From Rhodanobacteraceae bacterium (GTDB lineage Bacteria > Pseudomonadota > Gammaproteobacteria > Xanthomonadales > Rhodanobacteraceae), in the NCBI GenBank assembly GCA_035688305.1, contig DASSNC010000111.1, forward strand, positions 573-64,572: 64,000 bases of DNA, in the 5' to 3' direction. Numbering within the stretch: the stretch's first letter is position 1; the number at the start of each line of letters is the position of its first letter. This document shows, in pieces, positions 41,292-61,227 of this stretch. The position numbers and the translations under genes were made by a program. A model generated the notes under the pieces. It was not told where the DNA came from. It was given only the letters and a program-made list of their open reading frames with translations, and searched no databases.

Positions 41292-41393
41292 GGGCGTACG
41301 GGGGTGTTTGTGGCCGAGGATCGGTCAAGACTACCCGAACACAGGCTGAATGTGGCGGGGGCGGGGAACGGGGAACAGGGGACACGGGCAGTT

Positions 41394-41655: not shown

Positions 41656-41679
41656 AGTTCCGAATCCCGAGTCCCGCCC

Positions 41680-42237: not shown

Positions 42238-42340
42238 GTACTCGTTTCCCTGTAGGCCATATCGCTATTGTCCATGATCCAGGGCGAGCGTGTTGCGCCT
42301 CAGGCCTATGTCAGTTATACCGGCCAACGAAATTGGGAGT

Positions 42341-43243: not shown

Positions 43244-43298
43244 ATCTGGTTGTGATGGAGGGGCACACTCTCGCAGCGATCGGTGCCCACGGGGTACG

Positions 43299-45920
43299 TT
43301 GAGTGAGCACAGGCTGCGTTCTCTACTCGATCACGATTGTAAAGACGGACGAATCCTGGCCGATCGTGGCGGCAAAATAAGCCGACGCCACTACGCAGGT
43401 CTACTCGGCTGTACTCACAGTGCCCTGGCGAGGTTCAAGGCTGTGTTCGCGGAGTACGAGCAGCGACTCGGTATAGTGACGGGTCCGATGCAACACTTCT
43501 CTGAGATGAGAAAATGGCTCACTAAGTCATACGAGTCACGAGAGCTAGGGATTCGCGATAACAAGTTGGACCGAGTTGCATTCATGATGCACTTTGGTCT
43601 GCGTGGTGGGACTTTTATGAGACGCCACCCACCAATTCGGAAGTTGTTCGAGGAGTTTGATGCTCGCGCGAAACGTGAAAGCTATCTTCCGCTCGAGAGA
43701 TATAAGGAACTCGAACGAGTAGTGGCCATACTTGCCGCTGGGCCTGTCCTCAACAAAGACCGAATGACCATTAATCAGGTCGAGCTCGCGAAAGCAGCCA
43801 AGGTTCCTAGGGCCAGACTCGGCAGCAGGCCTTTTGCAGATGTAGTTGCGGCAAGCCAAGCGACAATCTCGGCTGAAGTCGCTGCAAGTAGAATTGATCC
43901 ATATGTTCACGGCCGCGTTTTCCCGTTTAGTGACTTAATAGCACCTTGGTCAGAGCTATTTCTCGAGCGTGTTGGGATTCGATTCAAACATATAGCGGTG
44001 GGCCTATCGCCATCAACGGTTAAAGGCCCTTATCTCCAGCTTGTTCATATGCTTGCCTGGATCGGCAGAAGTGAGAATCCGCACTGTCGAACAGTTGTTG
44101 CCGAAGCCAATAAATTTGGCCGAGTGCACTCAGTCGATGAATGGGAGGAGGCGTTATTTGTCTACCGTGATCGACTGGTTGCAACGATTGCCGATGGATC
44201 AGCGACGGAAAGTTCCGTTGACGGTGCGATTTCTGCACTGCGTATCGTGCTCAACGCTCTGTCTTCGGCGCAGGTCGTGCCACCTGTTGCGATAACCTTA
44301 CCAGGCATTAAGCACGTCAGGCGTCGAAGCGGCCACCTGAGGAGCGTTGCGGAGGCGAGCCTCACTGACGCGGGGCAAGAAGCCGATTACGTTGCATTCG
44401 CACGAGATCGCTTCCTCGATGCGTGCAAGGGTTCGGGCACCGACATGGGGATGGGCGACACGGACGACTTCATCAACGGGTTAACCGTTGAGATTAGCGT
44501 CTCTCATGATTTGTCTAGCGATCCTGTTGAGGCGATTCGCCTTGTGCTGGAGCGGCGCCTCCGTGCTCTTCACAGCCATGCAGCGGCGATCGTTGATAGT
44601 GCTGTGAAGGCCAGACAGCGAGGTCACGAACTGCTCTTGCGCTCTCAAATCGACGGGGCGGCATTCGAAGCCGGCTACCTTGCGTCTACTGGCAATCCGT
44701 ACAAATTAAGGCAACTTGTCCGAGAGTTTTTCCCAAATCCGGCTGATTCCACAAAAGCCAAGACTGAACAAGGCGTTGCGAATCTGCTAGCGCTGATCCA
44801 ACAGCGGTGTGGGGGAGTCCCACCGGTGGGCAACAAAAACAATAGTCTTGGTTACGGGCAGTTCTTTGCCAAACGCTATCTCGCCTATGGTGGACTAGCA
44901 ACTATCGGTAGATTGCTGAATCCGGATTCGGATACTGTTGGCGCAGTCCTTACTCTGTATCTCATCGAAAGCGGGGCGAACGTAAGCGTAGGTCGTACGC
45001 TCGATCGGGAATGCATGGAAGCCAGTGACCTAAGCAAATATTGCCGCATCACCGGTTACAAGGCCCGAGCTAAGGGAAAACCCATCATAGTTGACTTGCC
45101 AGAACGCTCGCCGGCTGTGGAGGCAATTAAATGGTTCTTATCGAGCAGCGAAGAACTGAAAGCCGCTGCGGGACGTGACAGCGATCGACTATTTCTAATG
45201 CGGATTGGCGGTCGCGTACAACTGATGACACCGCATTGGTACAACAATTGGTTCAAATCATTCGCGGGGTCAGTGCCAGAGCTGCAGGGCGTAAAACTGC
45301 TCCCGAGCATGATTCGGCCATCTGTACTCCTACACGCTTCGCTCGGAAACGAAGGCCGACTCGCGGTGGGAATGGCTATCGGCCAACACGGACTCGCCGT
45401 GACTCAAGGCTATCAGCAGAAGTGGCCCACCAGGCTGTTGTATGACGAAAATATCCGGCGCTTTCAAAAAGCATTCGAAACCCTGGTCCTTTCCGGTGCG
45501 GAGGATGTGGCGTTGAAACTTGGCATTACGGTGGAACAGTTCACTGCACGGTTGGGAGAGTTGCGCGCCACTGGGCTCGGCACCTTCTGTAGGGATCAGC
45601 GGGGGCGCTCCAGTGAGCCCGGTAAAAAATGCTCCACGCTCGACTGCTGGAACGACTGCCCGCATATGCTTATTGTGGCTGAGGTAGAGGCAATCGCTGC
45701 ACTTCAACTCTGGCAAAGGTCGCTACGGGCTGCGCGCCCAGATTGGGAACGCGACCAGCCTGAGCGTTGGGATCGGGTGTGGCTTCCTTGGCTCTGCCTC
45801 ACAGATGTCGTCGAGGAAAAGATGGTGCGCGGTCCTATGATCAAGATTTGGAATGCGGCAATGCGCCGAGCATCTGAGATCTCCGCGAAATCCGACTACG
45901 TACCGCCTCACCCTTGGTAA
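43299..45920 (+). CDS. Large tyrosine-recombinase-like protein, first of the trio (Tn554 TnpA-like position)
   Basis: ORF 43011-45920. Its upstream part overlaps thyA in another frame, so the start is uncertain; a TTG at 43299 is the first plausible start after the thyA stop. C-terminal catalytic-domain-like motifs: SGANVSVGRTLD (Arg I), ITGYKARAKGK, LLPSMIRPSVLLHA (x-x-Arg), GQHGLAVTQGY (His...Tyr). Confidence 0.65.
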   Translation: MSEHRLRSLLDHDCKDGRILADRGGKISRRHYAGLLGCTHSALARFKAVFAEYEQRLGIVTGPMQHFSEMRKWLTKSYESRELGIRDNKLDRVAFMMHFGLRGGTFMRRHPPIRKLFEEFDARAKRESYLPLERYKELERVVAILAAGPVLNKDRMTINQVELAKAAKVPRARLGSRPFADVVAASQATISAEVAASRIDPYVHGRVFPFSDLIAPWSELFLERVGIRFKHIAVGLSPSTVKGPYLQLVHMLAWIGRSENPHCRTVVAEANKFGRVHSVDEWEEALFVYRDRLVATIADGSATESSVDGAISALRIVLNALSSAQVVPPVAITLPGIKHVRRRSGHLRSVAEASLTDAGQEADYVAFARDRFLDACKGSGTDMGMGDTDDFINGLTVEISVSHDLSSDPVEAIRLVLERRLRALHSHAAAIVDSAVKARQRGHELLLRSQIDGAAFEAGYLASTGNPYKLRQLVREFFPNPADSTKAKTEQGVANLLALIQQRCGGVPPVGNKNNSLGYGQFFAKRYLAYGGLATIGRLLNPDSDTVGAVLTLYLIESGANVSVGRTLDRECMEASDLSKYCRITGYKARAKGKPIIVDLPERSPAVEAIKWFLSSSEELKAAAGRDSDRLFLMRIGGRVQLMTPHWYNNWFKSFAGSVPELQGVKLLPSMIRPSVLLHASLGNEGRLAVGMAIGQHGLAVTQGYQQKWPTRLLYDENIRRFQKAFETLVLSGAEDVALKLGITVEQFTARLGELRATGLGTFCRDQRGRSSEPGKKCSTLDCWNDCPHMLIVAEVEAIAALQLWQRSLRAARPDWERDQPERWDRVWLPWLCLTDVVEEKMVRGPMIKIWNAAMRRASEISAKSDYVPPHPW

Positions 45921-45924
45921 TTGT

Positions 45925-47979
45925 ATGACTAAGGACGCCGCACTTACTCATCCGAGCGTCATACCAGTTCCGCTTGACATGGATGATCGACGCCGTGCGT
46001 CATGGCTGCTGAACAAGTACACCGACTCGATTTGGGTAGTTACCGACACACATGATCGTGGTCAGAGGAATGCGATCCAGTTTCAGTTTAGGCTGGCTGA
46101 CGGGAGGTCTCTGATAAACGCCGATAGGCTGTACGCGACGGTTAAAGAATATGCTTGGTGGGTGCGGGACTCCAGATACAGCCGCATTGACGACGCATCC
46201 ACACACGCGACGATGGTGCGCAACTTGATGAATTTCGCACACGCGCTAAGCCTACGCAACATCTGGTCGTTTGCCCATTTGCAACCGTACGACCTGGAGC
46301 AACTGATAGAGGACTGCCGCTTTGGTACCGATGCTCTAATCCACGCTTCGGAACGAGTTGAAGCACATCTACGAAAATTGGAAGAAGCGAACAAAAGCGA
46401 GCCCAGGCCGTATGGAGGGCTTCCCCCGTATGTCAATCCAGCCACCGGTAGGCGCACTGGCTTCGTCTCTTCAGGCCAGATTCTGGCGGCGTGTAACCTG
46501 CCCACTAGCGCGCGCACGTTGCGACGTGTCGGTGAGCTGATTGCGCGAGCTGCTGCGGCAAATGGTCTACGGATAAGGCGGCCGCTTCGCAACTTTGCCG
46601 GCGATCTTGACCAGTTGCCTAATGTGACAGTCCAAGCTTTACATCGGTCGTTAGATCCGCTCGAGCAACTTTATGCCATGCGGCGCAAGATCTTGGCTGA
46701 GTCCATCGGGTTTAGACCATTTCCATGCGGCGCTGCACGAGTTGCGGCTGCCAAGGGGGTGGGTGCTGCGCGTACCCCCATTCCGCCACCGATGCTCGTG
46801 CTTCATCTTTTTGAGCAATCCGCGCGCTGTATCTCCGACTACGATGAAAAGCTGAAACCCAGTCAGATGGAGCGAAGCGACGTATTCCGAATGGCATCTG
46901 CGTGCTGGATCGTTATCGCCGGGTTTACCGCTCGTCGCGATGAGGAGATCGACGATTTGCGCCATGGGTGCCTTCGAGGAGATGAGCAAGCCGGTTGGTG
47001 GCTCCATGTGTACATTGAAAAGACTTTGCAGCGTAAGGAATGGATCCCGGTGCCAAGACTTGTAGCAAGGGCGGTCGAAATAATGTCGGCCATCAGTGCG
47101 ACTGCACGGCAGGAAGCAGGCGGCGATCAGCTGTTCCAGTGGCTACATCCGGACAGCAGAAGAACGGTTCGGATCGATGTTGGCCGCCAACTAGATGAAT
47201 TCGCCGAGGCGGTGCACGTCCCACTGCATCGTTCGCCTGACGGGTCAGTCGCTGCTTGGCACTGGCATCCCCATCAGTTTCGGCGGTTCTTTGCCGTTTT
47301 GTACTTTTACCGCTTCGAGGGTGCAACGATCGAGGCTTTGTCGCACCATCTCCGACACTTCAGTTTGGAGATGACAAAGCGCTACGTGACTCAGGACCCG
47401 GAGGTTGCTGCTCTTTGGCGTGATGTCGAATGGGGCTACTTGGGTGAGGTTGCACGATCCATTGTCGCGGGCGAGCGTTCTGTCTCTGGTGCCGCCGGTG
47501 AGCGATTGAAAAAGGTCGCACACCGTCTTATTGACATGTTTCGGCGCAAGCTGCTGATCATCTCACCAGAACGCGTTGGCGCCAGCGTCGCACTGATTAT
47601 GCGGCGCCAAGGAATGGTGCTGACGCCTAAGCCTTGGGTTATCTGCTCCTGCCCAAGAACGCGTGACGCTGCGATACTTGCAGCATGCCGCCGCGAACAA
47701 CCTGTTGATGTAGCGGCGGTGGGCCCCGACTTTGCGCATGCTGGTCCTTTAGTTTGCTCTTCATGTCCCCACGCCATAACGCAAAGGGATCGGTGTAGTG
47801 CCATCGATGCCGAAGTCAAACATCTGGAGGCCGCTGCCGTGTCTCAACCTCGCACTAACACTCTGCTTGGAGCGCTCGAGGAAGCCCGGGTAATCGAGCT
47901 GCGCCGCGTTCGGGAAACGCAGTACGAACACGCAAGCGCTGTCAGGTGGGCGACTCAGGAAATGGAGGGAAATGGATGA
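45925..47979 (+). CDS. Tyrosine recombinase, second of the trio (Tn554 TnpB-like position)
   Basis: The ATG at 45925 lies 5 nt after the previous stop. Motifs: FTARRDEEIDDL (Arg I), HPHQFRRFFA (His-x-x-Arg), LSHHLRHFSLEMTKRYV (His...Tyr nucleophile). Confidence 0.8.
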   Translation: MTKDAALTHPSVIPVPLDMDDRRRASWLLNKYTDSIWVVTDTHDRGQRNAIQFQFRLADGRSLINADRLYATVKEYAWWVRDSRYSRIDDASTHATMVRNLMNFAHALSLRNIWSFAHLQPYDLEQLIEDCRFGTDALIHASERVEAHLRKLEEANKSEPRPYGGLPPYVNPATGRRTGFVSSGQILAACNLPTSARTLRRVGELIARAAAANGLRIRRPLRNFAGDLDQLPNVTVQALHRSLDPLEQLYAMRRKILAESIGFRPFPCGAARVAAAKGVGAARTPIPPPMLVLHLFEQSARCISDYDEKLKPSQMERSDVFRMASACWIVIAGFTARRDEEIDDLRHGCLRGDEQAGWWLHVYIEKTLQRKEWIPVPRLVARAVEIMSAISATARQEAGGDQLFQWLHPDSRRTVRIDVGRQLDEFAEAVHVPLHRSPDGSVAAWHWHPHQFRRFFAVLYFYRFEGATIEALSHHLRHFSLEMTKRYVTQDPEVAALWRDVEWGYLGEVARSIVAGERSVSGAAGERLKKVAHRLIDMFRRKLLIISPERVGASVALIMRRQGMVLTPKPWVICSCPRTRDAAILAACRREQPVDVAAVGPDFAHAGPLVCSSCPHAITQRDRCSAIDAEVKHLEAAAVSQPRTNTLLGALEEARVIELRRVRETQYEHASAVRWATQEMEGNG

Positions 47980-48574: not shown

Positions 48575-51500
48575 TTATGGAGAGTCTGACGGCCTGATCG
48601 CGAATCGCACCTTCTCTTCATGGCTTGCATTCTTGGATCGACGTGCCGTCGCAGCAGTAAATTCTCGGACCCCAATAAGCGCCTCCAGTTGAGTCCGGCC
48701 GGTTGCGTTCAAAACGATGGCCGCCCCTTCTCCCCAGAGGCAATCGCCGTGCGTTTGGCCATCAGGCGCTCCGTCTCGCCAGCAATAGGCAGTTGCTACG
48801 ATCGCCCCGGTGGTGTCTGCCCACGTAGAGGAGCCGTCATCTGCAATTCGCCAGTTGAGGCTCGCGGTAAGGGAGGGATCGAGAGTCAGCTCGAAGTTAG
48901 GAAGCGACCCCAAACCCTCACGTTCGACGCGGCAAACAGGGATCCACGCTCTGGTTTCAGGTCCGCCGTTAAGTCCCGCGGGCGCTGAAACGGGTAGGCC
49001 ATCATACAGAAAGCGAGGATCGATACGAGCAGGAAGTCTCGTTCCGAATAAGCGCATCCGTGTCCATTCATAGGTAGTGAAAGCGTCTCTTCCGTGAAAA
49101 TGAGACACCCCCGCGAGGATTGTGTCTGGGCCGAGATCCACATCACTCAAGTCCTCTTCCACCGCCGCCAGCCAGTCTTCCTCGTCCACCCTGAATCCGG
49201 GCATCGTCGGTCGGTGGACAAATTCGGGCCTAATATCCATCTTAGTCCGCAGTGGGACTTGGGACTCGCCGAGGGCCCAAACCAATTGATCGATCTCGTC
49301 GGCACTGATTCGGCCTGCCCGTTCTAGTTCTCCGGCGATCCGTCGTAGGGCCCTTAGCGCCCCGACCACATGGGGGTATCGAAACGTCAATCGGAAGCCT
49401 AGTTTTGACATCTCCCGCTCTAATCCATCGAGACCTGGCTGCCCGAACGCCTCTAATCCACCCCAACTTTCGATCAGATCTTGGACTCTGCGCCGAATGT
49501 GACCCGTCGAAACACCAGCGGCCTCGGCAAGCCGGCTGACGAGATGATCGACGGGAGCGCTCCAAGCCGCGACATCCGATACAGCGGGCGGCCCGAAAGG
49601 TCGTCGGCGAAGAGAGTTAGCCCTAACGACCGGTTGTAGGGGCGGGAGAGCCAAACTGTAGAAAACTGGGGTCGGAGCGACTTGGCGCCCGACATCCAAT
49701 CCCCACTTCATGGTCAATGCTTTCGCAAGCGAACGCACTACGATGTCGTCGTGATCAACAAGCGCAACAACGCGGGTCTCCAGCACCCCCCGGAGTTTCG
49801 TTCTACCCCACGCGCGGGCGAGACGAAGGCCCTCAATCACCTCTTCCGCGGCACCCGAAAGCATTGATTCGATCAGTGTCGTTAGCGCATCTTCATCGAT
49901 GTCTGCCAAGGCGGAAAGGCCTCGTTCCGCGTGCCATCTGAGTTCGGGAATGGGAAGCGCTAAAAGTTGGTGAAATAGCTTCGCAGTTAAAGCTGAGTCT
50001 GTATCAACATCGATCATCTCGATGTCTTTACCAAGTCGGTAGTCGCGTGTGCAAGGCAATTGCTCCTCCACTGACTCCCACATTGCCTGCCAATTCGGGG
50101 CAGTCGTGAGCACCGGCCAGATGTCATCGATATCCCACAGAAGCGAGTTAGTCATCTCTTCTCCAGCTGCCAGCGCCGATGCGAAGTTCGCGTAAGCATC
50201 TGCGTGGACAGCGGCCCCATCCAACTTCAATCGGGCCTGGAAGTAACGTCGACGACCACCGCCCATCGTCCAGGACCAGCTTGCACTACGATCCTCAGCA
50301 ATCACATAACCGTTGACCAGGCGAGCAGCCACATCGTTGCGGCCAACGGCCAATGCTCTATCCACCAAGCTGAATCGAGCGCGGTTATCCTGGCTTATGC
50401 GGGCATGTCGATCGAACAAAGCAAGCGCTACATCAATATCGGCCGTTGGAATCAGCCTGATGAATGCCTTCGTCGCGTCATAGTCAACGGATCCGTCTGT
50501 CGCCACTTCGTCGAGCCGAGCCGTGAGGCTCGTTATGTCGGCAACATCGTCATAACGTGTTGGAGAGTCTCCGCCGCTTCTGCGCAGCGTCGGCTCGCCG
50601 GCGAGCCTTGCCATGCCCGCGCGGATGCCTCCTGAAGGCACTCCACGCTTCTCAACCTCTAGCGCCAGTGTGTCGAGAAGCGAATGCCTGACGTCCATCT
50701 GCGAATGGATCTCGATATTCATTTGCAGAATATTGGCTATAACATCGACTTCCGCAGGTGCCGCGACGCCCATGGCTTCGCGAATGAACCACCCTTCTGA
50801 CTCACTGCGGTAATACGCTGCCCTATGGAAGGGCAGGCAGAGCGAAACCCAGGTCTCGACACAAGCCCTGAGGCGCCGTGGATCTCGCTTGACCAAGCCG
50901 ATCATCAAGGCATCCACGACGTCCGGTAATTCAATCAGATCGGCGTTGTTGAGAGCCAGTGCCGTGCTGATGCCAAGCTTCGCGTTATCCAACATCGCCT
51001 CTACGATGATCTCGTGAGCGATTCGGCCAGCTGCGTCTCTACCTTCTGTTAGCGTCATGCCGACGGCTTGCCGAGCAAGCGTGCGTACACGCGCGAATCG
51101 CCCGACCGGATCGATACGATTAGCCTCGCGCAGGAGTGCTATCCAGAAGGCATACTGCGGATCCTTTTTCGCTTGAACGGCATAACCGAGTGTTTCAGCT
51201 CTGCCTTCCGCTAACAACGCTCGTGCACGATCTTTGCGTCCGATTTGCGCGAATGCAACAGCCAAGCGAGCTGTACTCGAAAGAAACTCGCTCGGAGTAT
51301 TCTCGTCCCGACGTTCCAGCAATCCGCTTAAGCGCCGCTCCGCATCATCGACATTCCCACCTAACTGTGCCATCGTGCAGGCGATCACACTCTCGAGGGG
51401 GACGAAGCGATTTCGTTCTGTCGGGCTATCGGCAAGGACTTGATCGATCTCATTTACTGCCATTGCGAACTCATTCAGTCCCAATCTAGCTGCCGACTCC

Positions 51501-54500
51501 AAAAGGGACCGCACCACCTCCGATGCCGCGGAAGTCAGCTGGCTGGTAGCGAAGAACTCGCCTGCCTCTTGGGCACGCGTTCGGCACACGTAACGCATGA
51601 ACCGCGCGCATTCTTGCGCAATTTCACCGTGAGCTATCGATGCTGCAGCATTTCGACTACGCGCAGCTAGCTGCCCTGCGAGCTCGCTGAACTGTTGCAA
51701 CGGTCTCAGCTGAGGCTTGCCCGATTGCGGAGCGGTGGCAACCGACAAGCTGAGCAAGGTCGCCAGTTCTGAGTATTCCATCACTGCTCGCGTAACGTGC
51801 TTGACCGACTCGTAGTTGATGGAATCATCAAGCTCGGAAATCGCGGGTGGCGCAAGCCCTTGGAAAAGAGATCGCGCATTAGTCAGCAGATTTCTATGGG
51901 CAATCTTAAGGGCAACCTTTCTCCTCAGCCAATCTGAGGTTTCCGAAAGCGCCCGTACATCTGTCGTGGCCTGCTCAATTAATGCTGTCGCATCTGCTGT
52001 CCTCCCGCGGGTCAATAGATGTGCAGCCGCCCAAAGGCGCAAGAACACGTGTGCACCGGGCTCCAAGCGGAAATCGGCGATTATTGTGCCTACATCAACT
52101 GCCGAATCGAATGCCAAGGCTGCCATTGCGGCACGTTTTCGTAGCAGATTCCCGAGGTCGTTCGGGTCCTGAAATGGATGATTGTCACGCCCGGCGACCT
52201 CGACGATACGGTCAATCCCGGACAAGATCTCAGTCGGCGTCCTAAAATGGATTGCCTGCTCAACCCAATTCTCAAGCTCGCTACGTTGGGAAACCGGACC
52301 TCCGGTGGACCCGTCGTCACTTCCCAGGTCGTGCAATGGTTCGATGCGCTCGAAGAGAGATCTTGCTCGATCCAAGTTTCCCTCGGCCAACCACGCAGCC
52401 ACCACGGCGTATCCGTTACCGCCTACCTCCTCAATGAATGCCTCCGCATCATCAACGTCGCCAGTTGCAATCAAGGCCTCGACCGTATCATCCGACTGCT
52501 CAATGGCCGAAAATCGACGAGTCAACTCGTCCGACGAAAAGATCAAACGGAAGGCTGCTGTTGGATCCCGCACCTCCTTCAAAGAATTGAAGGCCAGCCT
52601 GATATCGTCCTGAATGCTACCCACCGATCGGCCGGCTAGAAACTGCTCGCGAAAGAGCGCCGGAGTCGCGAGTACTAGCGCCTCTTGATGCGCTCCAGAG
52701 CGCAACAGATAGCGCAATTGCAGATACCGTTGAGGCGAATCATCGCCTGCGCTTACCGCGATTTCCGCCAATCGTCGGTATAGCTGTGTTGAGTATTCAG
52801 GATCTGGCACTCCATAACGCAATCTGGGTATGCGGGCCACAAACAGCCGAAAACTGTTGTGAAAGACCGACCAGCCACGCCCATTACTGATGAGGAGATG
52901 GCGAACGTTGCGCCAGGCGCGATCTATGGCGTCGATGGAGTAGAACTGTTCGAGCTGGCCCAGATCCAATGGAGCCTCTGATCTAGCGATGAGCCCGAGA
53001 ATGTCCATGATCTCTTGGTCATCGTCCAACCCGCGCAATGCGGATGTGTACAACGCCTCGACGTCTCCCGAGTATTCGAACCCTCCATCCAGAATACTCG
53101 CCCGTTCCACCTCGTCCTTGGCAGCGAGCAGCGCTTCGATCAGGTAGTGAGTCGCAAGCGGATGACCTTGCGCCAACTCGCGTAAGCGCGTCCTCGAGAT
53201 GGTCTCTGGAAGCCCCATAGCATCCGCCATTGCGGAAATTGCACCCTGAGACAGAGGGGCGATTTCCACATGGCGTCTTGGCAAACCCGATTGGTCTCGA
53301 ACAGAAGGTGGAATGCCGGGCAGATCTACGCGCTGGGTCCCCAGAAGGAACACAACGCCATCGGGAATCGAGGCCGGAAGTGGCAATTCCGAAAGAAATG
53401 ACCGCTCGGGGCGCTCCTCTCGAGGTACATGATCCAATCCATCGACGACAATAAGCGTTCGAGTACCAGTTTCTTGGAACCGCGTACCCGCTGCGCTAAG
53501 CAATGCTTCGAGTTCCTCCCGCCTTTCTTGAGGTGACTCCCGCCGGAACCGAAGACCGCGCAGACCGGTTCGTCGTAGCCCTACGATCAGGTCCTCTTGA
53601 AAGTCGGCTGCCTCTGCGCGGCCTATCCCTTGGGCAGCTCCAGGCACGAAAGCCAGGTACCTGACCACAACAAGCCGAGGCTCCGATTCGAATGCAATCT
53701 GCAGCAAAGTGGACTTGCCGGAACCAGGAGGCCCGACTAATGACACATATCCCGATGTGCTTCCATTCAATGCAAGCCTAAGTTGCTCCTCCGTAGCCGG
53801 ATTGCGCTGTACGGCAGCGCCAACGGGAAACTGGTGGCGATGCAGGGTCTCGACATCGAGCCAGCCCATTTCTCGCAGGAATGCTTCTCTGGTCCATCGA
53901 TCCTGCTCGGGAACGCGAGCAACAAGAGTTGGCAAGCGCTGCGCTATCCGATCTACTTGCGGCTGTGAGAGATCGGTTATGCCAAATCGAGTGGCGAAAT
54001 CTGGATCTCCGCCATGGACGAGTTCGAAATGGCGCAGAAACTCCTCGAATCCAGCATCGTCGAGGCTCGACTTCCCAAGTAGATGTTCGACAAATGAGCC
54101 CCAACGAGATACTTTCCACTCCGCCAACGTCCATGAAGGGTGTGCCCTCCAGTCTTCGACGAACTGTCGCGTCGTTCCACCATCATCAGTTAGCCGATCA
54201 TTTTCCGACGGAATATCCGATACAACGACGCGAATTCTTACCGTCTGACCCGGGCAACTTTCCCGTAGCTGCTGCCAAGCGAGAACTAATCCAGATAGCA
54301 AACCGTCGCTCCCGGTCAAGAGCGAACTGATCCGAAACGCGGAGGGGTTCCGTGCAGTCTTGAATTGGTGTCCCACCACTTCGTCGTCATACCCCAACAC
54401 GACGTCGTCGGCGATTCCGGCACATCGATCTGCGAGGCCCACCCAGCGCAGGTCTCCGCCGTCCAACCCGCGGTAGATGGCCGCGGCCGCAGCTTCGTAC

Positions 54501-54616
54501 TGGCGGGTGTATCCGCGCTGTGCCCGTCTCTCACCCTCTCCCGGAGCAGTTGTTCGGGTAGCAGAAGCTTCAGGTGAGGGTTCGGGATCTAGGGCAGGGG
54601 AAGCGGGGACACTCAT
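48575..54616 (-). CDS. Giant STAND-type NTPase with an N-terminal Cap4/DUF4297-like PD-(D/E)xK nuclease domain and long helical-repeat C-terminus (Avs/NLR-like)
   Basis: 2013 aa. N-terminal RGYTRQYE...GIADDVVLGYDDEVVGHQFK (nt 54359-54430). Walker A GPPGSGKS (nt 53711-53734), Walker B LIVVDGLDH, and a GHPLATHYL winged-helix-type motif. About 1400 aa of Leu/Ala-rich helical repeats and a distinct C-terminal ~250 aa follow. Confidence 0.8.
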   Translation of the reverse strand: MSVPASPALDPEPSPEASATRTTAPGEGERRAQRGYTRQYEAAAAAIYRGLDGGDLRWVGLADRCAGIADDVVLGYDDEVVGHQFKTARNPSAFRISSLLTGSDGLLSGLVLAWQQLRESCPGQTVRIRVVVSDIPSENDRLTDDGGTTRQFVEDWRAHPSWTLAEWKVSRWGSFVEHLLGKSSLDDAGFEEFLRHFELVHGGDPDFATRFGITDLSQPQVDRIAQRLPTLVARVPEQDRWTREAFLREMGWLDVETLHRHQFPVGAAVQRNPATEEQLRLALNGSTSGYVSLVGPPGSGKSTLLQIAFESEPRLVVVRYLAFVPGAAQGIGRAEAADFQEDLIVGLRRTGLRGLRFRRESPQERREELEALLSAAGTRFQETGTRTLIVVDGLDHVPREERPERSFLSELPLPASIPDGVVFLLGTQRVDLPGIPPSVRDQSGLPRRHVEIAPLSQGAISAMADAMGLPETISRTRLRELAQGHPLATHYLIEALLAAKDEVERASILDGGFEYSGDVEALYTSALRGLDDDQEIMDILGLIARSEAPLDLGQLEQFYSIDAIDRAWRNVRHLLISNGRGWSVFHNSFRLFVARIPRLRYGVPDPEYSTQLYRRLAEIAVSAGDDSPQRYLQLRYLLRSGAHQEALVLATPALFREQFLAGRSVGSIQDDIRLAFNSLKEVRDPTAAFRLIFSSDELTRRFSAIEQSDDTVEALIATGDVDDAEAFIEEVGGNGYAVVAAWLAEGNLDRARSLFERIEPLHDLGSDDGSTGGPVSQRSELENWVEQAIHFRTPTEILSGIDRIVEVAGRDNHPFQDPNDLGNLLRKRAAMAALAFDSAVDVGTIIADFRLEPGAHVFLRLWAAAHLLTRGRTADATALIEQATTDVRALSETSDWLRRKVALKIAHRNLLTNARSLFQGLAPPAISELDDSINYESVKHVTRAVMEYSELATLLSLSVATAPQSGKPQLRPLQQFSELAGQLAARSRNAAASIAHGEIAQECARFMRYVCRTRAQEAGEFFATSQLTSAASEVVRSLLESAARLGLNEFAMAVNEIDQVLADSPTERNRFVPLESVIACTMAQLGGNVDDAERRLSGLLERRDENTPSEFLSSTARLAVAFAQIGRKDRARALLAEGRAETLGYAVQAKKDPQYAFWIALLREANRIDPVGRFARVRTLARQAVGMTLTEGRDAAGRIAHEIIVEAMLDNAKLGISTALALNNADLIELPDVVDALMIGLVKRDPRRLRACVETWVSLCLPFHRAAYYRSESEGWFIREAMGVAAPAEVDVIANILQMNIEIHSQMDVRHSLLDTLALEVEKRGVPSGGIRAGMARLAGEPTLRRSGGDSPTRYDDVADITSLTARLDEVATDGSVDYDATKAFIRLIPTADIDVALALFDRHARISQDNRARFSLVDRALAVGRNDVAARLVNGYVIAEDRSASWSWTMGGGRRRYFQARLKLDGAAVHADAYANFASALAAGEEMTNSLLWDIDDIWPVLTTAPNWQAMWESVEEQLPCTRDYRLGKDIEMIDVDTDSALTAKLFHQLLALPIPELRWHAERGLSALADIDEDALTTLIESMLSGAAEEVIEGLRLARAWGRTKLRGVLETRVVALVDHDDIVVRSLAKALTMKWGLDVGRQVAPTPVFYSLALPPLQPVVRANSLRRRPFGPPAVSDVAAWSAPVDHLVSRLAEAAGVSTGHIRRRVQDLIESWGGLEAFGQPGLDGLEREMSKLGFRLTFRYPHVVGALRALRRIAGELERAGRISADEIDQLVWALGESQVPLRTKMDIRPEFVHRPTMPGFRVDEEDWLAAVEEDLSDVDLGPDTILAGVSHFHGRDAFTTYEWTRMRLFGTRLPARIDPRFLYDGLPVSAPAGLNGGPETRAWIPVCRVEREGLGSLPNFELTLDPSLTASLNWRIADDGSSTWADTTGAIVATAYCWRDGAPDGQTHGDCLWGEGAAIVLNATGRTQLEALIGVREFTAATARRSKNASHEEKVRFAIRPSDSP

Positions 54617-54787
54617 CGGTTCATGATAGTGAATGGCCTTCGATGCCGCTGGAATGGGCCCGGAGTCGGAAATTGGGTCGGCGGCAACAAGGCAACGCCA
54701 CCGCAGATCGGCTTGGACGTGCAGAAGGCCAAGCGCAAAGAATTTTGGAGCAAGTCCGGCAACCGACCCATCGACTCTACGGCTAAC

Positions 54788-56305
54788 TTACGTCTCGGAA
54801 TTCGAAACTGCCGCCGCGTCGGTATCTTGGGGCCATTCAAGGCAGCTCCGGATGTTAAATCCGCCCGTTGAGCCGTACTTCGTCACATCGGCGGGAAGAT
54901 GATCCGTCAGATATCGGTGAACACGGCGAACAATGGCTGCATCAAAGCTCAGGATGCCCAGGGGGATCGGGAATCCGCGGCCATCGTTAATTGGCGCGTG
55001 AACAACCACGGCGGCAACTCTGCGCGGAATCAGGAGGACTTCGAGCGAGCTTGGAATCGCCCCAGTATTTGGCCTGCAGAAGATTGTGGGAGCGGCTTTA
55101 GTCAGCCGCCGCTGAGGTTTTCCTTCATCAATCAAGATGGGGCTGCGCTCCATCTTTCTGCCAGTGGCGTCTACATCAACGCCTTCCTTCGTGAGCGTTT
55201 CGAGAAGCTCCAGGAAGGATCGCGAAGCACCCCATGCTGACTGCTTCGGCACGACCCACAAGAAAACGTCATCATTGCTAAGCGCAGGTTCGTTTGCGTA
55301 GCCGATAGCCGTTGTAATTCGTACGATGTTCTCGGGTTGATACAGCGCTCCAGCGATGCCAACGGTGGGCCTATTGCTGCGCAACTCACCGGCGCGACCG
55401 GCCAATTCCTTGAAGTAACGAAGCGATGCAAAACCAGAGCGATTCACATACTCCTTTAGGTACTCGGGCGCGATATTCGTCAGGACGTCGAGCGCATTGA
55501 CATCCTCCGGCGTCTTTACGGTTCGAAGATTCTCCAGAAACTCCGCCACACCATGGACGACTCGGTCTCGATCGGCAAGTTCGTGCCCTGTTCTCCACTT
55601 CTCCAGAAGCGCTTCAGGTTCGCTAGGCCTCCGAACTGAGGCCATGGCAACAAACGGGACGACTGCTGAGAATCGGTCGCCGGCGACTACGTCATCCACT
55701 GAGTACAAGGACCTCTTTAGTTGATCCACCGCCTCCCTGTCCCTGCGACTTGAAATCTCTCCATAGAATCTGCGAAAGGACTCAGGAACGTGCCTCGAAG
55801 CGTTGGCGACCAGGTCCGGATCTCGAATCGCAAGCTCAGGTAGCGATCTTTCAAATTCGGATTGGTGCTCCCGATCGCAGGGCGCAAGAGAGAGTAAATC
55901 GAATCCAACTCTTTCTGTTTTTTTAGCGACGTCGTAGATCTGAGGCTTGTCGCTCGCCTTAAAGAGGGCGTTGCCGGCATCCGTCAGCCAAATGCGTCCT
56001 TCGGAGCGAGATATATAGGCTCGGGCTTCGGCATCACGTATGACGTACGCCATTTCATTGGCGTTGAAGCCAAAGAAGCTTGCAGCAGTTTCCTCTGGCA
56101 TGCCGTCGGCAGAATGCAATAGTCGCAGCAAGAACTCGGTTGTTAGCGAAACCTCGCCAACTTCGGCCACTTTGTGCCGCACCACGAACTGTCTGGCCGG
56201 AAGTTGCACGTCGAAAATTCCGACGGGAACCCGAACGTCGATCGATTCAGGTTCGGCTCCAATTGCTGCCTTGCGCAATGAAAGCACGCGACGAGCCCCG
56301 CTCAT
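54788..56305 (-). CDS. Hypothetical 505-aa protein, translationally coupled to the NERD-kinase-helicase gene
   Basis: The ATG at 56305 overlaps the upstream gene's TGA (ATGA at 56302-56305). The long ORF has composition matching its neighbours. I see no nucleotide-binding, HxK (PLD) or other catalytic motif. Confidence 0.7.
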   Translation of the reverse strand: MSGARRVLSLRKAAIGAEPESIDVRVPVGIFDVQLPARQFVVRHKVAEVGEVSLTTEFLLRLLHSADGMPEETAASFFGFNANEMAYVIRDAEARAYISRSEGRIWLTDAGNALFKASDKPQIYDVAKKTERVGFDLLSLAPCDREHQSEFERSLPELAIRDPDLVANASRHVPESFRRFYGEISSRRDREAVDQLKRSLYSVDDVVAGDRFSAVVPFVAMASVRRPSEPEALLEKWRTGHELADRDRVVHGVAEFLENLRTVKTPEDVNALDVLTNIAPEYLKEYVNRSGFASLRYFKELAGRAGELRSNRPTVGIAGALYQPENIVRITTAIGYANEPALSNDDVFLWVVPKQSAWGASRSFLELLETLTKEGVDVDATGRKMERSPILIDEGKPQRRLTKAAPTIFCRPNTGAIPSSLEVLLIPRRVAAVVVHAPINDGRGFPIPLGILSFDAAIVRRVHRYLTDHLPADVTKYGSTGGFNIRSCLEWPQDTDAAAVSNSET

Positions 56306-59300
56306 ACGTCACCTTCCTTCCGCTTGACCCTGCCAGTGACCTTCTCTTTTCCCTTCCTCGACGATTTTGGTGAAGCCAGAAGCTCGGAGGCGTCCAGGCG
56401 CATGGCGTCACCGCCTTTGACCTCTTCGTCGAAGCCGGCCGAAACAGCACCAAGCGGAGACCCTTCTCTCCATGCTGCCTTTGCGCCCACGATGACAAGA
56501 CGATCCATCGCTCGACTCAGGGCGACATTGATTCGATTCTTCTTCGCCAGGAAGCCGGGCTGTATTGTAGGCGCCCCGCGGTCCTTGATCCCATCTGCGT
56601 TGTTTCGAACCAGCGACAGAATCACAATGAGGTTTTCTTTGCCTTGGTAGCTGTCGATAGTGTCAACCTTGATCGCGCGCCTGAATACCTCTGGAAGGCT
56701 CTCGGATTGGAGTTTCCGTCTCACGAGTTCAAGCTGCGCCGCATACGCGCAGATCACGCCGATCGCCTCCACGCCATCCGGCAGAGTCTTAATCCAGCTC
56801 AAGAATGGCTCGTGTTCGGACCAGCGCTTAAGCAGCCAGACGATCACATCCGCTTCGGCGGCATTGTGTAAACTCCCACGCCTTATACTTCCGGCCCTTT
56901 GGTAAGCGCTCGCACCCATGGCGTCCGTACTCACCCACACGAGTGGAACCGCCAGTTCAGGCGGCAGGGCCCCCGGAGGAATTTCTGGCTTGGTCCGTTC
57001 GTGTTGCAGAGCTCGGTCGTAGAACGAGTTGGAGACCAACCTGCCGATCGGCGGAAGCATCCGATACTGCTTCTTTAACGTATGCCCCCCATGTTTGCCG
57101 TATGTGGATTCGAACGCGCGCTCGAAATCGCTCTTAACCACTTCGGCTGCCGAAATCTTCAACTCAAGCGCGAGAGCATCCACGACATCTGGAGAATGCT
57201 GGGGTTCGAGTTGCGCGTGGTCGCCTACTAGCACGACCCATTTCCCCGCTTGTATTGGAACCGCCAGCTCGCTCGGAGTGCAGCGCGCCGCCTCATCCAC
57301 GATCACGAGATCAAAGGTTGTCTTCGTCAGCCCCAAGGAAGAACGGCCAAGGCCTACGCATGTACCCGAGACTACTTGCCGGGTGCCGGCTAGAAAAGTC
57401 TCGTAGCTCCTCTGCCATGTAGAGACAGTTCCGACGATGTCCCGCCCGAGCTCTGCGATGTTTCGCAGCCGCTCAACCCTATGAGCAGTTTCATTCGAAA
57501 GCCTTGAGAAGAAGAGGGAGGTGACCATGTTCTCGACCTCGCTCGATTCAACTTCTGACAGGTCGCAATCAATACCACGATCTAGAAGGCGCTGCTGCAC
57601 AGTTGCCTTCAATGAGTTGACTCGGACTGTTTCGCTGTTTGCCTCGACCAACTCGGAAACGCGGGCCAGTATCGGCCGGATTGTGTCCTCGAAGAACATC
57701 ACGGTCTCGCATTCGGTTTCACTCAGTCCAAGATATCTCGCAACGACACCCATCCTTAATTCGCGGGTCGCGACGAAGTCATCCTTATAAGCTCGTTCAA
57801 CGGCAGCGGCGTGGTATGGCCTCAACGACTCGGAAATCTGGCCCTCAGCGCCAACCCGAATCATGCTTAGCGAGTCGCGGTCCTTTCCGAACAAGTTCAA
57901 TACGGCCTCGGCCGCGTTGTTGACAGCTTCATGCGATTGACTGGCAACTAGCACGTTCCTCGCGAGCCCATGAGTCAGCGCGTAGTGCACCAGTGCGCCA
58001 ATGAAGCGCGTCTTTCCTGTCCCTGGGGGGCCCTGCAACAAGCCCAACGGCCGATGCGCGACGATTCCTTTGAATGCGGCCACCTGCGTCGGATTGAGCT
58101 TATAGCGCTGCACCAGCAGGTCTTCTTCCACCTCAATGGTGATGTTGTAGGGCCGCTTGCCTGTGGCAGGGTAAAAAGCGTCGAGCAACTCAGGAGCAAC
58201 GGAGTTTTTGGTGAGAATTCGAGTTGTTGCCTCCTCGCGGCGCTGCCAGCTCGTGTTCTCCATACGACTTTGGAACCGGAGGCGGTCGCCATCTCGAACG
58301 ATGGGGCCTCGAGAGCCGTCGACGTAACCGTGAATGGCCAAAGCGTCTGCAGATGTCTTCTGAACGTCGAGGGCCCCGATCTTGCGCCAGATGCCGTTAT
58401 TGTCGAGTCGCTCAACTGCGACCACGTCCTTTCGGTCGAAATCCAGGTTGCCGACCGACAGCTGAATCGGTAATACGTGAAGACGCGCTTGCGAGCGATA
58501 TGTACTGTCGCCTAAGGCAAGAACCTCCGTCTTGAGCTCGCCCTCGATCCGAATCGAACGCTCCCACAACAGTGGCACATCCAAACTACCCCTTGCTCCA
58601 CCTTCGCCGGCTGCTTGCTCTCGCTCTACAAGCTCGTCCTCCTTTGCTTCGATGCTGGCGACTTGAGACAGTTCCTGCTCGCTCTCTTCCTTTATCTGAG
58701 GTGGTGGCGCGCCCAGTGCAGCCGCAACCTCAGGGAGTTGGAGGATCGACGAAATAGCCCCCAATTGACTCAATCCGCTTTCAATCACGAGATTCGCGCG
58801 GAATCCGCAGATCTTCTGCTTCGCGAGCCAAGATGCCTGCGCTTGTTCAAGCTTGTTGCGCCACGCCTTCGAGGGCGCTCCGGTAGCGCCCAATTCGACC
58901 GAAAGCTCCTCGACTGCGCCAACGATTTTGAGTCGCCTGTCGCTTTTCACAATCCAAAACTGCCCTTCGTCAGGAAGCATCGGGCCAGATTCAGTGCGAG
59001 GAATGGAGATGGTGAAACTCGGCAGATCACTTTCAGTAGGCGGTTTCGCAGCGACTTCGAGAGCCTCGCGTAGCGGTAACAATGTACCGTTCGCTGGAGG
59101 TCCCATGCGACATTCTTCGATGGCCCTTTCGATTCGTCGAGCGACTTCCGCATTGATGTCTAGCCTCGCCAGAAGTTCCTCTGCGATTTTTGTCACTGCG
59201 TAGCGATCGCGCTCGAATCGCCCACCCGAAGCGGGTGAATAGGCTCGAGATCGACGAGATCCGTCTTGGGCGGATGAGTAGTCGACCATGTCAATGAGAA

Positions 59301-61227
59301 CCGGCAGGGGCTTGCCTGCACTTCCATCGACAATGATGTTGTCAGGTTTTAGGTCTCCATGAGCCACCGCTCGCCCATGCAGATTTTCAATCACATCGAT
59401 GAGCTCGACGATAAACTCTATCGCTGCAAGCGCCTCTCCTAGTGGGCCGGTTCCCATGCTCTCCGCAAGCGTTCTGCCGGGAACATACTCCTGAACCAGA
59501 ACAATCGCATCGCCAGTCCAATGCACATTAAGCAGTCGAGCAGTCCCCTTAGCCGGAGCCTCTGCTAACTGCTGAGCATGGTCTAAAAACGCAAGGATTC
59601 GGGAGCGCTCCTTAGCAATGTTCCCGAGCGTGAGCGACTGCCACATCTTTACGAGGCGCAGTTGTCCTTCGGAATCGGCTCTCCAGACAATCGCCCGCTC
59701 ATCGTCGCTTATGAGCTCGGTCTCGAGATAAGCCTTGAAGATATCTCTCTGTGTCTTCAATGTTCGGTAGCGCTCGAGCCCTTCGATTGTCGACTTTTCA
59801 TCGCTGCCTGAAACAAGAGCGGCGTTGAACGCTGCAAGCATTTCGCCCGCGTCGCTGAATCGATTGGACTGGTCCACGTCCAGACACTTCTCGAACCACG
59901 GATGCAGATTAGAAAACTCTCCGTCTGCGTCGATCGTACTGTTCCATTCTGGCGGCTCGCCGCGGGGAGGCTCCCCAAATAGCAGACGGTGAATCACGCA
60001 TCCCAGCAAAAATACATCCCTGCGAAGTAGATCAACAGGTCCACCCAAGATGTCCTCAGGCATGCTGGAAGTAGAAAGAAACTGAAACCGAGACTCGCCT
60101 AGCGTCTGGACTTCAGGTAAAGATGCAGACATCAAATGTGAGAGTTTTACCGTACTTGGTAGCTCCACCCATACGCTGTGAGCACCCAAATCCAAGTGAG
60201 CGGCGTTCAATGCGTGAATCGGTGCTACCGACGACAGAACCTGTCGTGCTAAGGCGATGCGTTCTCCTGCGGTGGCACCAGCGAGGTCCGACTGAGCGAA
60301 CTCGCTCAAGCGCTTCATCCGTCGTCGGCGCTCGAAAACCTCCCAGTAAGAGACACCACGCTCCGGATCTTCCGCCTTTGGCTTGAAAATCGACTCACCG
60401 CACTTCGGGTTCCGATCATCCAACCAAGCGATAACCTTCCTTTCACGACCTGCTATTTCCGCGCGCCCGGCTTCGGTCTGAAACCGTGTGTCAGCCTTTG
60501 CAAAGTTCCAGCGGCGCAGGAGTCCGCAGGAATTGTCAATTCCAGACTCCTCCACGTCAAACTCGGCATAGAGCTCTTCACGGTGCTGGAATGTGGGCGC
60601 GTCTACACGCGCTATGAAGCCACCATAATTGCGTTTGCCAACTTGGAATATTCCACCACCCACATTGAAAAAGCGCCTGAAGCGCTGCATCCAGACATCG
60701 CTCGTGAAGTCTTCGAAGAAGACAGGACCAAAGGCTTTGATTCTTTTATCCTTGTTTCGGACAACCTTGATGAAGTCATCGATGTAGAAGACGAACGCTG
60801 ACTCGCTATCGGCAATCTGAGACCGATCTTTGGTATTGGTCAGCACTACCGCTGACTGGATCATCGGGGTGGGCAGAGGATCAGTTAATCCCTCCTTCTT
60901 AGCCTGCTCTGATAATGATTTTTTAAGAATGGGATGAAGTTCGCGCGCGATCTCTGCGATTTTCCCTACGGGGGATCGACCATTGTTGCGGTTTCCATTG
61001 AACCAGTTGCCATCGCGACTACTGATCGGCCCCTTCCAGTCCTTCAAGTCGACCAGCAAAAAGCGATCTTCCAACACAAGAACTACGTCGATTTCTCGAG
61101 TACCTTTTCCAGGCAAAGACAGATCAAGGTTCGTAAACGCGTGCCAACTATCTGGGAGAGCCTTAAGTTTGTCTAATCCTGGAACCTCACGAACATGAAT
61201 TCCACGGCCATTGTTGAATATTTTCAT
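56302..61227 (-). CDS. Fusion protein with NERD nuclease-like domain, pseudokinase-like segment, Ser/Thr-kinase-like domain and Upf1/DNA2-like SF1 helicase
   Basis: 1641 aa. NERD motif EIDVVLVLEDRFLLVDLKDWKG (aa ~45-66). Degenerate kinase loop HLDLGAHS (nt 60175-60198) followed by DVFLLGCVIHRLLFGEPP. Second kinase with LRLVKMW (beta3 Lys), VQEYVPGRTLAE (hinge), HGDLKPDN (nt 59338-59361) and LIDMVDY. Helicase motifs GPPGTGKT (nt 58009-58032), VIVDEAARC, GDHAQLEP, KKQYRM, TIDSYQGKE and VALSRA. Confidence 0.85.
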   Translation of the reverse strand: MKIFNNGRGIHVREVPGLDKLKALPDSWHAFTNLDLSLPGKGTREIDVVLVLEDRFLLVDLKDWKGPISSRDGNWFNGNRNNGRSPVGKIAEIARELHPILKKSLSEQAKKEGLTDPLPTPMIQSAVVLTNTKDRSQIADSESAFVFYIDDFIKVVRNKDKRIKAFGPVFFEDFTSDVWMQRFRRFFNVGGGIFQVGKRNYGGFIARVDAPTFQHREELYAEFDVEESGIDNSCGLLRRWNFAKADTRFQTEAGRAEIAGRERKVIAWLDDRNPKCGESIFKPKAEDPERGVSYWEVFERRRRMKRLSEFAQSDLAGATAGERIALARQVLSSVAPIHALNAAHLDLGAHSVWVELPSTVKLSHLMSASLPEVQTLGESRFQFLSTSSMPEDILGGPVDLLRRDVFLLGCVIHRLLFGEPPRGEPPEWNSTIDADGEFSNLHPWFEKCLDVDQSNRFSDAGEMLAAFNAALVSGSDEKSTIEGLERYRTLKTQRDIFKAYLETELISDDERAIVWRADSEGQLRLVKMWQSLTLGNIAKERSRILAFLDHAQQLAEAPAKGTARLLNVHWTGDAIVLVQEYVPGRTLAESMGTGPLGEALAAIEFIVELIDVIENLHGRAVAHGDLKPDNIIVDGSAGKPLPVLIDMVDYSSAQDGSRRSRAYSPASGGRFERDRYAVTKIAEELLARLDINAEVARRIERAIEECRMGPPANGTLLPLREALEVAAKPPTESDLPSFTISIPRTESGPMLPDEGQFWIVKSDRRLKIVGAVEELSVELGATGAPSKAWRNKLEQAQASWLAKQKICGFRANLVIESGLSQLGAISSILQLPEVAAALGAPPPQIKEESEQELSQVASIEAKEDELVEREQAAGEGGARGSLDVPLLWERSIRIEGELKTEVLALGDSTYRSQARLHVLPIQLSVGNLDFDRKDVVAVERLDNNGIWRKIGALDVQKTSADALAIHGYVDGSRGPIVRDGDRLRFQSRMENTSWQRREEATTRILTKNSVAPELLDAFYPATGKRPYNITIEVEEDLLVQRYKLNPTQVAAFKGIVAHRPLGLLQGPPGTGKTRFIGALVHYALTHGLARNVLVASQSHEAVNNAAEAVLNLFGKDRDSLSMIRVGAEGQISESLRPYHAAAVERAYKDDFVATRELRMGVVARYLGLSETECETVMFFEDTIRPILARVSELVEANSETVRVNSLKATVQQRLLDRGIDCDLSEVESSEVENMVTSLFFSRLSNETAHRVERLRNIAELGRDIVGTVSTWQRSYETFLAGTRQVVSGTCVGLGRSSLGLTKTTFDLVIVDEAARCTPSELAVPIQAGKWVVLVGDHAQLEPQHSPDVVDALALELKISAAEVVKSDFERAFESTYGKHGGHTLKKQYRMLPPIGRLVSNSFYDRALQHERTKPEIPPGALPPELAVPLVWVSTDAMGASAYQRAGSIRRGSLHNAAEADVIVWLLKRWSEHEPFLSWIKTLPDGVEAIGVICAYAAQLELVRRKLQSESLPEVFRRAIKVDTIDSYQGKENLIVILSLVRNNADGIKDRGAPTIQPGFLAKKNRINVALSRAMDRLVIVGAKAAWREGSPLGAVSAGFDEEVKGGDAMRLDASELLASPKSSRKGKEKVTGRVKRKEGDV

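Follow-up and report, generated by a model that had tools for sequence, protein, structure and literature searches.

A predicted Mokosh type I operon of the SEC470 subtype and a neighbouring Avs-like STAND gene, probably two independent anti-phage systems, on a low-GC island of a Rhodanobacteraceae bacterium

We analysed a stretch of 64,000 nucleotides from a Rhodanobacteraceae bacterium (assembly GCA_035688305.1, contig DASSNC010000111.1, positions 573 to 64,572; hereafter the window), which carries three large neighbouring genes, A, B and C, on an island of low GC content. The open reading frame (ORF) table of the window places all three on the minus strand, co-oriented, with products of 1641, 505 and 2013 residues and an hsdR-type gene upstream (Table 1). 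A and B are joined by an ATGA overlap, the stop codon of A (56304-56302) lying over the ATG of B (56305-56303), and a spacer of 171 nt (54617..54787) separates B from C. This layout is the one given by an initial annotation made from the sequence, which put the three genes forward as a candidate for an undescribed defence module. A and B are here identified as the predicted mkoA and mkoB genes of a Mokosh type I system, and C as a gene for an Avs-like STAND protein.

Table 1 Genes and domains at the locus (positions in the window)
Feature	Position	Strand	Details
Gene A (mkoA)	56302..61227	-	ORF, 1641 aa
NERD nuclease-related domain of MkoA	60841..61170	-	aa 20-129; Pfam PF08378, E 6.6e-10
Degenerate kinase-like region of MkoA	59788..60540	-	~aa 230-480; catalytic loop HLDLGAHS at 344-351
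Ser/Thr protein-kinase domain of MkoA	59248..59742	-	aa 496-660; HGDLKPDN at 623-630; DFG-like D646
Upf1-like SF1 helicase core of MkoA	56479..58101	-	aa 1043-1583
Gene B (mkoB)	54788..56305	-	ORF, 505 aa
Winged helix-turn-helix of MkoB	55976..56146	-	~aa 54-110; AF2 model and Foldseek
C-terminal alpha/beta domain of MkoB, predicted PLD-like	54836..55378	-	~aa 310-490
Gene C (Avs-like STAND)	48575..54616	-	ORF, 2013 aa
Cap4-like (DUF4297-type) PD-(D/E)xK nuclease domain of C	53852..54544	-	~aa 25-255; structure model
STAND NTPase module of C	52433..53812	-	aa 269-728; Walker A GPPGSGKS at 295-302; Walker B VVDGLDH at 390-396
C-terminal region of C, presumed ligand sensor	48578..52432	-	aa 729-2013, conserved throughout
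hsdR-type type I restriction subunit	61423..>64000	-	upstream; 5' end outside the window; separate system
Divergent tyrosine recombinase (middle ORF of three)	45853..47979	+	PHROG integrase families phrog_216 and phrog_1, E ~1e-6, aa 389-517

Both A and B are matched along their length by PADLOC profiles of a described system. Protein A aligns with the MkoA profile PDLC03921 (E = 0, 1592.6 bits) from residue 1 to 1616, on profile positions 1-1603 of 1607, and protein B with the MkoB profile PDLC03923 (E 3.4e-106) from residue 26 to 475, on profile positions 8-442 of 454; a further match of B, to PDLC03922, is marginal and N-terminal (E 0.007). An assignment of this kind had been set in advance by the initial annotation as refuting its reading of an undescribed module. 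Mokosh type I was described as a kinase-helicase gene accompanied by a PLD gene with the motif HxK(x)4D, and the systems listed as verified include two of type I from E. coli, which differ in architecture (Millman et al. 2022, Table S2). In the first, from ETEC H10407, an MkoA of 1215 aa is paired with an MkoB of 602 aa labelled 'HTH-PLD' (HTH, helix-turn-helix), which has the canonical motif HAKIIVCD...GSCN. In the second, from E. coli SEC470 (system SG199, which Tables S2 and S8 both give as verified), a 'Kinase-Helicase' MkoA of 1652 aa is paired with an MkoB of 478 aa labelled only 'HTH'. The initial annotation had held that no described system combines a NERD fusion with a partner lacking a PLD motif; the verified SEC470 system has exactly this arrangement, and NERD in Mokosh type I has already been tabulated (PMC10952713). 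As the SEC470-type reference we took the locus of E. coli TUM1886 (L122), whose identity to the published sequence is 100% across its 399 nt, and whose genes encode 1652 and 478 aa. Protein A and this MkoA share 30% identity along the whole protein (E 1e-165), and B aligns end to end with the corresponding MkoB, with invariant residues in common. The full-length profile matches, together with the homology to the verified SEC470 pair, thus place A and B, as judged from their sequences, in Mokosh type I, where they appear as a divergent member of the already validated SEC470 subtype, whose verified system defends E. coli against phages.

The domain composition that had been proposed for A, namely NERD, a kinase of the active type with a degenerate copy, and an Upf1-like helicase, is borne out by Pfam matches and by loops conserved among 34 MkoA homologues, the E. 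coli protein among them. The PD-(D/E)xK-type residues of the NERD domain are E45, D47, D60 and K62, and its segment REiD...DLKDW is kept in at least 90% of the homologues, ELK replacing DLK in E. coli. The loop of the first kinase-like region lacks the canonical Lys and Asn and is conserved in the family as AaHLDlG.HS, the E. coli version being HRDVADHS. For the second kinase, which Pfam recognizes as Pkinase (E 2.3e-12, residues 564-660), the motifs aHGDlKP.Ni and D..DF are conserved. The helicase core matches AAA_11 (E 3.2e-34), AAA_12 (E 3.3e-37) and the IGHMBP2 family TIGR00376 (E 2.6e-40), and its Walker A motif (GPPGTGKT, 1066-1073) and motif II (DEAA, 1311-1314) are invariant or almost so.

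The partner protein MkoB was not matched by any Pfam family, PLD included, and its fold was predicted with an AlphaFold2 (AF2) model built on 33 homologues (pLDDT 85, pTM 0.76). In a Foldseek comparison with the PDB, the model matches the MarR family with a probability of 1.0 and a root-mean-square deviation of 1.2-2.8 over 62-76 alignment columns, corresponding to the N-terminal winged helix-turn-helix (wHTH). All remaining matches belong to the PLD superfamily: 7e0m, NucT (6ehi), Nuc (1byr), Zucchini (4ggk), vaccinia F13, PLD4 and TrmBL2, the last of which is itself a wHTH and PLD-like protein. The E-values of these matches range from 1e-3 to 6e-2, with TMt of 0.43-0.49 for the small nucleases. 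Foldseek gives no query range, and the limits of the PLD-like domain in Table 1 were taken from the secondary structure of the model. A profile of the MkoB family found no PLD match among PDB sequences, and hhalign detected no similarity between the family and ETEC MkoB, which is a weak test, the target being one incomplete sequence of 399 aa.

In the predicted PLD-like fold of MkoB, the HKD motif has decayed. The protein has H436-A-P438 instead of H-x-K, with Ser at the Lys position in E. coli, and the Asp and Asn of the motif are absent from the family; G450, at +14 from H436, is in the register of the Gly in HxK(x)4D(x)6G(S/T)xN. Three elements are kept without change, or almost so, from the Rhodanobacteraceae proteins through to that of E. 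coli: E422, H436 and P448-L449-G450. On our reading, the two MkoB subtypes have a common plan of HTH and PLD fold, from which the SEC470 branch lost the catalytic Lys and Asp. The decay of HKD in MkoB, along with the intact NERD domain in MkoA, suggests that the effector role may have moved to MkoA. We tentatively propose, as a possibility, that MkoB of the SEC470 branch kept the PLD fold, lost the catalytic Lys and Asp (leaving H-x-P or H-x-S) and now has a nucleic-acid-binding or regulatory role, the cutting being done by a NERD domain acquired at the N-terminus of MkoA. No description of such a shift was found in the searchable literature.

The conservation of H436, E422 and PLG448-450 over so wide a range argues for a functional site, and the predicted PLD-like fold and the loss of defence upon PLD active-site mutation in the Mokosh systems tested by Millman et al. 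(2022) are in line with MkoB having stayed the nuclease effector, as in ETEC H10407. It would then act through a predicted His436/Glu422 pocket, with NERD as a sensor or DNA-binding module. We regard this as rather unlikely in view of the change of the HKD Lys to Pro or, in E. coli, to Ser, the missing Asp and Asn, and the intact catalytic residues of NERD in MkoA. PLD-fold domains without HKD, such as the C-terminal domain of TrmB, are ligand-binding and not known to be catalytic, which also counts against a nuclease role of MkoB. Furthermore, the MkoB of SEC470 was itself labelled 'HTH' and not 'HTH-PLD' by Millman et al. (2022), so that a canonical HKD motif is not required in this subtype.

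The extent of the unit was assessed from the genomic neighbourhoods of relatives. A scan for relatives of B, with one genome per species, gave 36 loci (34-79% identity), in 35 of which a full-length MkoA gene lies directly upstream of MkoB; the exception is at a contig end. Flanking gene families other than MkoA are common to at most 4 of the 36 loci. As no third gene is conserved beside MkoA and MkoB, the unit consists of two genes, in the window translationally coupled through their overlap. A homologue of C within 10 kb was found in none of the 36 loci, including the closest one, from Lysobacter arvi (~80% identity). For C, the survey covered 85 loci from genomes and metagenomes, in 43 of which the upstream sequence extends to 5 kb or more. 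MkoA and MkoB are near C in one locus, the metagenome contig L042, which, being 99.6-100% identical to the window, represents this same element again and does not count as a separate case. Any one neighbour family is found in 4 of the 85 loci at most, and the closest relatives of C (89%, 75% and 64% identity) have differing neighbours.

These counts bear on the suggestion that A, B and C together constitute a new three-component system, in which the STAND protein would act jointly with the Mokosh-like pair or downstream of it. The common orientation of the genes and a gap of merely 171 nt between B and C, in which a simple scan found neither a terminator nor a sigma-70-like promoter, speak for such a system, as does the recurrence of the A-B-C arrangement in L042. 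Set against this are the near-identity of L042 to the window, the absence of C from every MkoB-family locus and of MkoA and MkoB from all 84 other C-family loci, the changing neighbours of the closest C relatives, and the fact that the verified SEC470 system functions with two genes. Co-occurrence largely refutes the three-component proposal, which we consider extremely improbable. With no neighbour conserved over the 85 loci and C absent from the 36 Mokosh loci, C is an independent neighbour and depends on no partner gene. The initial annotation had left both options for the STAND gene standing, and had proposed genomic association as a check; the association holds for A with B, whereas C accompanies them only in the window-identical locus.

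The surroundings of individual relatives vary. In E. coli TUM1886 (L122:7753-8101) the SEC470-type Mokosh genes are found a short way downstream of a frameshifted pseudogene of a 'TOTE conflict system archaeo-eukaryotic primase', on an island that bears an integrase and a remnant of the insertion sequence (IS) IS66, another mobile defence context of this subtype. Among the relatives of C that are not identical to it, the closest one (89% identity, from a farmland metagenome, L123:7152-13380) is split into ORFs of 1551 and 526 aa, probably by a frameshift or as a pseudogene; its neighbours are genes for a phage-type integrase and an HTH protein. The 64% relative (L124-L126) has an SNF2/DEAD helicase with NOV_C upstream and, downstream, an AAA_21 ATPase with RloB and then a DUF1156 protein, a defence-island context. 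A Pseudomonas copy adjoins IS66 and an SMC-like ATPase.

Protein C opens with a nuclease domain. The initial annotation had called it Cap4-like from the sequence, and the structure model and the fold search agree. The N-terminal 275 residues were modelled with AF2 on 16 homologues (pLDDT 77); the best PDB match of the model is the N-terminus of Avs3 (8dgc, E 5e-7, TMq 0.56), with further matches to HamA (8zue), Cap4 (6wam, 6vm6, 6wan) and LmuA (9nxx, 9hr5), the E-values of these four proteins running from 5e-7 to 1e-4, and to HerA-associated DUF4297. The residues G35, Y36, Q39, Y40, D63, D70, D71, Q84 and K86 are invariant in this domain. Pfam DUF4297/Cap4 was found neither in the 280 N-terminal residues of C (E<=10) nor in 24 homologues, and the fold was revealed by the structure model alone. 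The identical protein at NCBI, HET7562815.1 (1955 aa), starts about 58 codons past the first ATG of C (window 54443-54616); its start would remove the invariant G35, Y36, Q39 and Y40, and the homologues favour the 2013-aa reading.

The nuclease domain is followed by an NTPase module that matches AAA_16 (E 3.6e-7), AAA_22 (E 4e-6) and, weakly, NACHT (E 1.2e-3), in keeping with the earlier identification of a STAND ATPase; its Walker A and Walker B motifs are invariant among the homologues. The only PADLOC or NCBIfam match of C is a weak one to Avs1b, confined to the NTPase (E 7e-16, residues 269-722); the same profile matches all 24 homologues, at best with E 2.6e-26. The invariant columns of the C-terminal 1285 residues reach residue 1993, and the last ~1300 residues are rich in helix-forming residues. 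The region had earlier been described as a huge repeat sensor; self-BLAST found no internal sequence repeats in C, and the TPR signals are faint, TPR_19 being detected in 6 of 24 homologues.

The family of C is large and uniform in build. More than 642 homologues span the full length of C, at about 2000 aa; they come from Xanthomonadales, Burkholderiales, Pseudomonas, Acidithiobacillus and an acidobacterium. When residues 1-760 were searched exhaustively, 562 representatives (50%-identity clusters) were obtained at E<=1e-30, nearly all of 1950-2130 aa and matched at the N-terminus. Defence-associated STAND proteins have been divided into at least 90 families that differ in structure, several of them with Cap4 nucleases that are activated by ligand-induced tetramerisation (Lee et al. 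2026, PMC13581612). Neither any of six C-relative accessions nor a matching taxon appears in the available part of the bioRxiv supplement of that work. C is a stand-alone Avs-type STAND protein of a family without a name in PADLOC v2 and NCBIfam 2026.

A non-immune function of C, as a STAND-type signalling or regulatory NTPase that came to lie in the island by chance, was also weighed. Of 589 STAND clades, 391 are not defence-related (Lee et al. 2026, PMC13581612), certain homologues of C stand among metabolic genes, and no model of the defence libraries reaches its threshold with C. We nevertheless consider such a function improbable: a Cap4-like nuclease with invariant catalytic residues is a hallmark defence effector found in Avs3, Avs7, Cap4, LmuA and HamA, the contexts in the window and in loci L041 and L123-126 are mobile or defensive, and Avs1b is the closest named relative. 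Across the family, relatives adjoin integrases, IS elements and other genes of defence type (AAA_21 with RloB, DUF1156, SNF2-NOV_C).

We consider it highly probable that the locus holds two independent anti-phage systems, a Mokosh type I system formed by A and B and an Avs-like STAND protein encoded by C, which adjoin a type I restriction-modification gene on an integrative low-GC island. Several points weigh against this account. How NERD and MkoB share the work is something that we infer, and a literature search for a mechanism of Mokosh type I found none; one group reported failure to purify the system. The assignment of a PLD-like fold to MkoB is a tentative prediction, the Foldseek scores of the model being modest (E >= 1e-3) and the sequence profiles unsupportive. 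As for C, several relatives are located among housekeeping genes, for example in Polaromonas; its scores against Avs1b are 48-55 bits where the curated cut-off is 1500; and searches of PDB sequences with the C profile and with the NTPase segment returned generic P-loop matches only, without any solved STAND protein.

If A and B act as a Mokosh system, the Upf1-like helicase of MkoA may engage phage RNA or an RNA/DNA intermediate, as hypothesized by Millman et al. The pair of active kinase and pseudokinase in MkoA may regulate the response or signal, and the NERD PD-(D/E)xK domain, whose catalytic residues are conserved, would perform the cleavage. MkoB, with its wHTH and a predicted PLD-like fold in which HKD has decayed to H-x-P, would serve as a nucleic-acid-binding adaptor or regulator. 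For C, by analogy with Avs3, Avs4 and Avs7, the C-terminal sensor of ~1300 aa would bind a conserved phage protein; the ATP-bound NTPase domains would then oligomerise, probably into a tetramer, and the assembled Cap4-like nuclease domains would degrade double-stranded DNA and abort the infection.

The novelty that remains at the locus is modest and lies in the predicted decayed-PLD MkoB with an intact NERD domain in MkoA, and in the large family of Cap4-STAND proteins. The former amounts to a hypothesis testable by mutation for Mokosh type I, a widespread and poorly understood system. The family of C, with at least 562 clusters at 50% identity, a Cap4 nuclease joined to a STAND module and a uniform length of ~2000 aa, is a reasonable candidate for ligand discovery.

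The island is marked by a drop in GC content from ~0.65 to 0.53-0.58, which extends from about 42.2 kb to ~62 kb, and starts within the host thyA gene. The host thyA (41680..42237) is a 5' fragment, whose homology stops at ...LGVPF (codon ~176, ~nt 42207) and is followed by junk sequence and a stop codon. The island has a complete, divergent thyA of its own (ORF 42290..43243, probable ATG at 42341) with 46% identity to the host fragment, so that the insertion replaced the essential gene that it disrupted. Directly upstream of the truncated host thyA, a unit of 133 nt is tandemly duplicated (2 copies, 95% identical, 41391-41656), and a 22-nt palindrome at 41423-41454 overlaps this duplication.

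Next to the island thyA lie three consecutive, slightly overlapping plus-strand ORFs (43011-48521) of up to 969, 708 and 191 aa, for which no Pfam, PADLOC or NCBIfam match was obtained. The middle one is recognized through PHROG and has the C-terminal tyrosine-recombinase motif HWHPHQFRR...Y; it is probably the island integrase, and the set of three is probably an unusual multi-gene integration module of a thyA-targeting island. With its own thyA and this module (42.3-48.5 kb), the island contains more than A, B and C, which make up the largest part of the cargo and not, as the initial annotation had it, almost the whole of it. Upstream of A, the hsdR-type ORF matches SWI2_SNF2, ResIII and T1R_D3 as well as PADLOC REase_I, and TIGR00348 with E 1e-38. 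The promoter and terminator scan of the region downstream of C was uninformative, an Rfam scan of 41-64 kb found nothing, and repeats inside the genes are short and at chance level. What looked like a giant three-gene module is a textbook defence island, with type I restriction-modification, Mokosh type I and an Avs-like STAND protein on an element in thyA.

The initial annotation had counted A, B and C as defence genes and had set them beside Mokosh type I, Nhi and Avs, comparators that proved relevant. With the SEC470 Mokosh system, A and B share a two-gene operon of identical order with a start/stop overlap. A has, like SEC470 MkoA with its NERD-like N-terminal region, NERD, a degenerate kinase, a kinase and an Upf1-like helicase, and both MkoB proteins are of ~480-505 aa, contain a wHTH and lack canonical HKD. 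The two systems differ in sequence, with identities of only ~30% for MkoA and ~18-21% for MkoB, in the kinase loop, which is HGDLKPDN in A and HGDIHPGN in the E. coli SEC470-type MkoA, and in the host clade (here Rhodanobacteraceae) and island. The Mokosh system of ETEC H10407 likewise joins a kinase and an Upf1-like helicase in MkoA and has an HTH-containing partner gene. The ETEC-type profile PDLC03920 (1112 positions) matches the helicase half of A (E 7e-123), but it aligns only from ~residue 977 and leaves the NERD/kinase N-terminus uncovered; unlike ETEC MkoB, B has no canonical HKD motif.

Other defence proteins resemble A in part. Its N-terminal 430-480 residues, comprising NERD and the kinase-like region, are homologous to the N-termini of BREX PglW (E 4e-25) and MADS MAD6 (E 5.8e-34). 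In contrast to these, A has a C-terminal SF1 helicase, and its scores are 83 against a cut-off of 990 for PglW and 118 against 460 for MAD6; further BREX or MADS components were absent from the PADLOC matches of the neighbouring ORFs tested. In Nhi, as in A, a nuclease-related N-terminus is joined to an SF1 helicase, and NERD is common to Nhi-like systems (PMC10952713); Nhi, unlike the present pair, is encoded by one gene, has no kinase domains and lacks a partner gene, and its model is not among the best 25 of the 37 PADLOC matches of A. Identification of A as Nhi, PglW or MAD6 was rejected, the matches being to partial domains and far outranked by the full-length match to MkoA.

For C, two Avs families were compared. 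Avs1b (PDLC02159, NF041810) provides the only named defence model that matches any region of C, the NTPase at aa 269-722. NCBIfam names Avs1b a protease, whereas C has a Cap4-like nuclease, and the effector and sensor regions are unmatched; with 48.3 bits against the cut-off of 1500, and those in the NTPase only, C was not accepted as Avs1b (NF041810). Nor was it accepted as Avs3, since neither the PADLOC Avs3 model, which also fails to match the homologues, nor the 8DGC chain sequence matches C, and sequence similarity between the two is undetectable. C was accordingly placed in the Avs class only. In architecture, C is like the terminase-sensing Avs3 (SeAvs3, 8DGC): both are single-gene proteins of ~2000 aa in which an N-terminal Cap4-like nuclease is followed by a STAND NTPase and a large C-terminal region, in C the presumed sensor.

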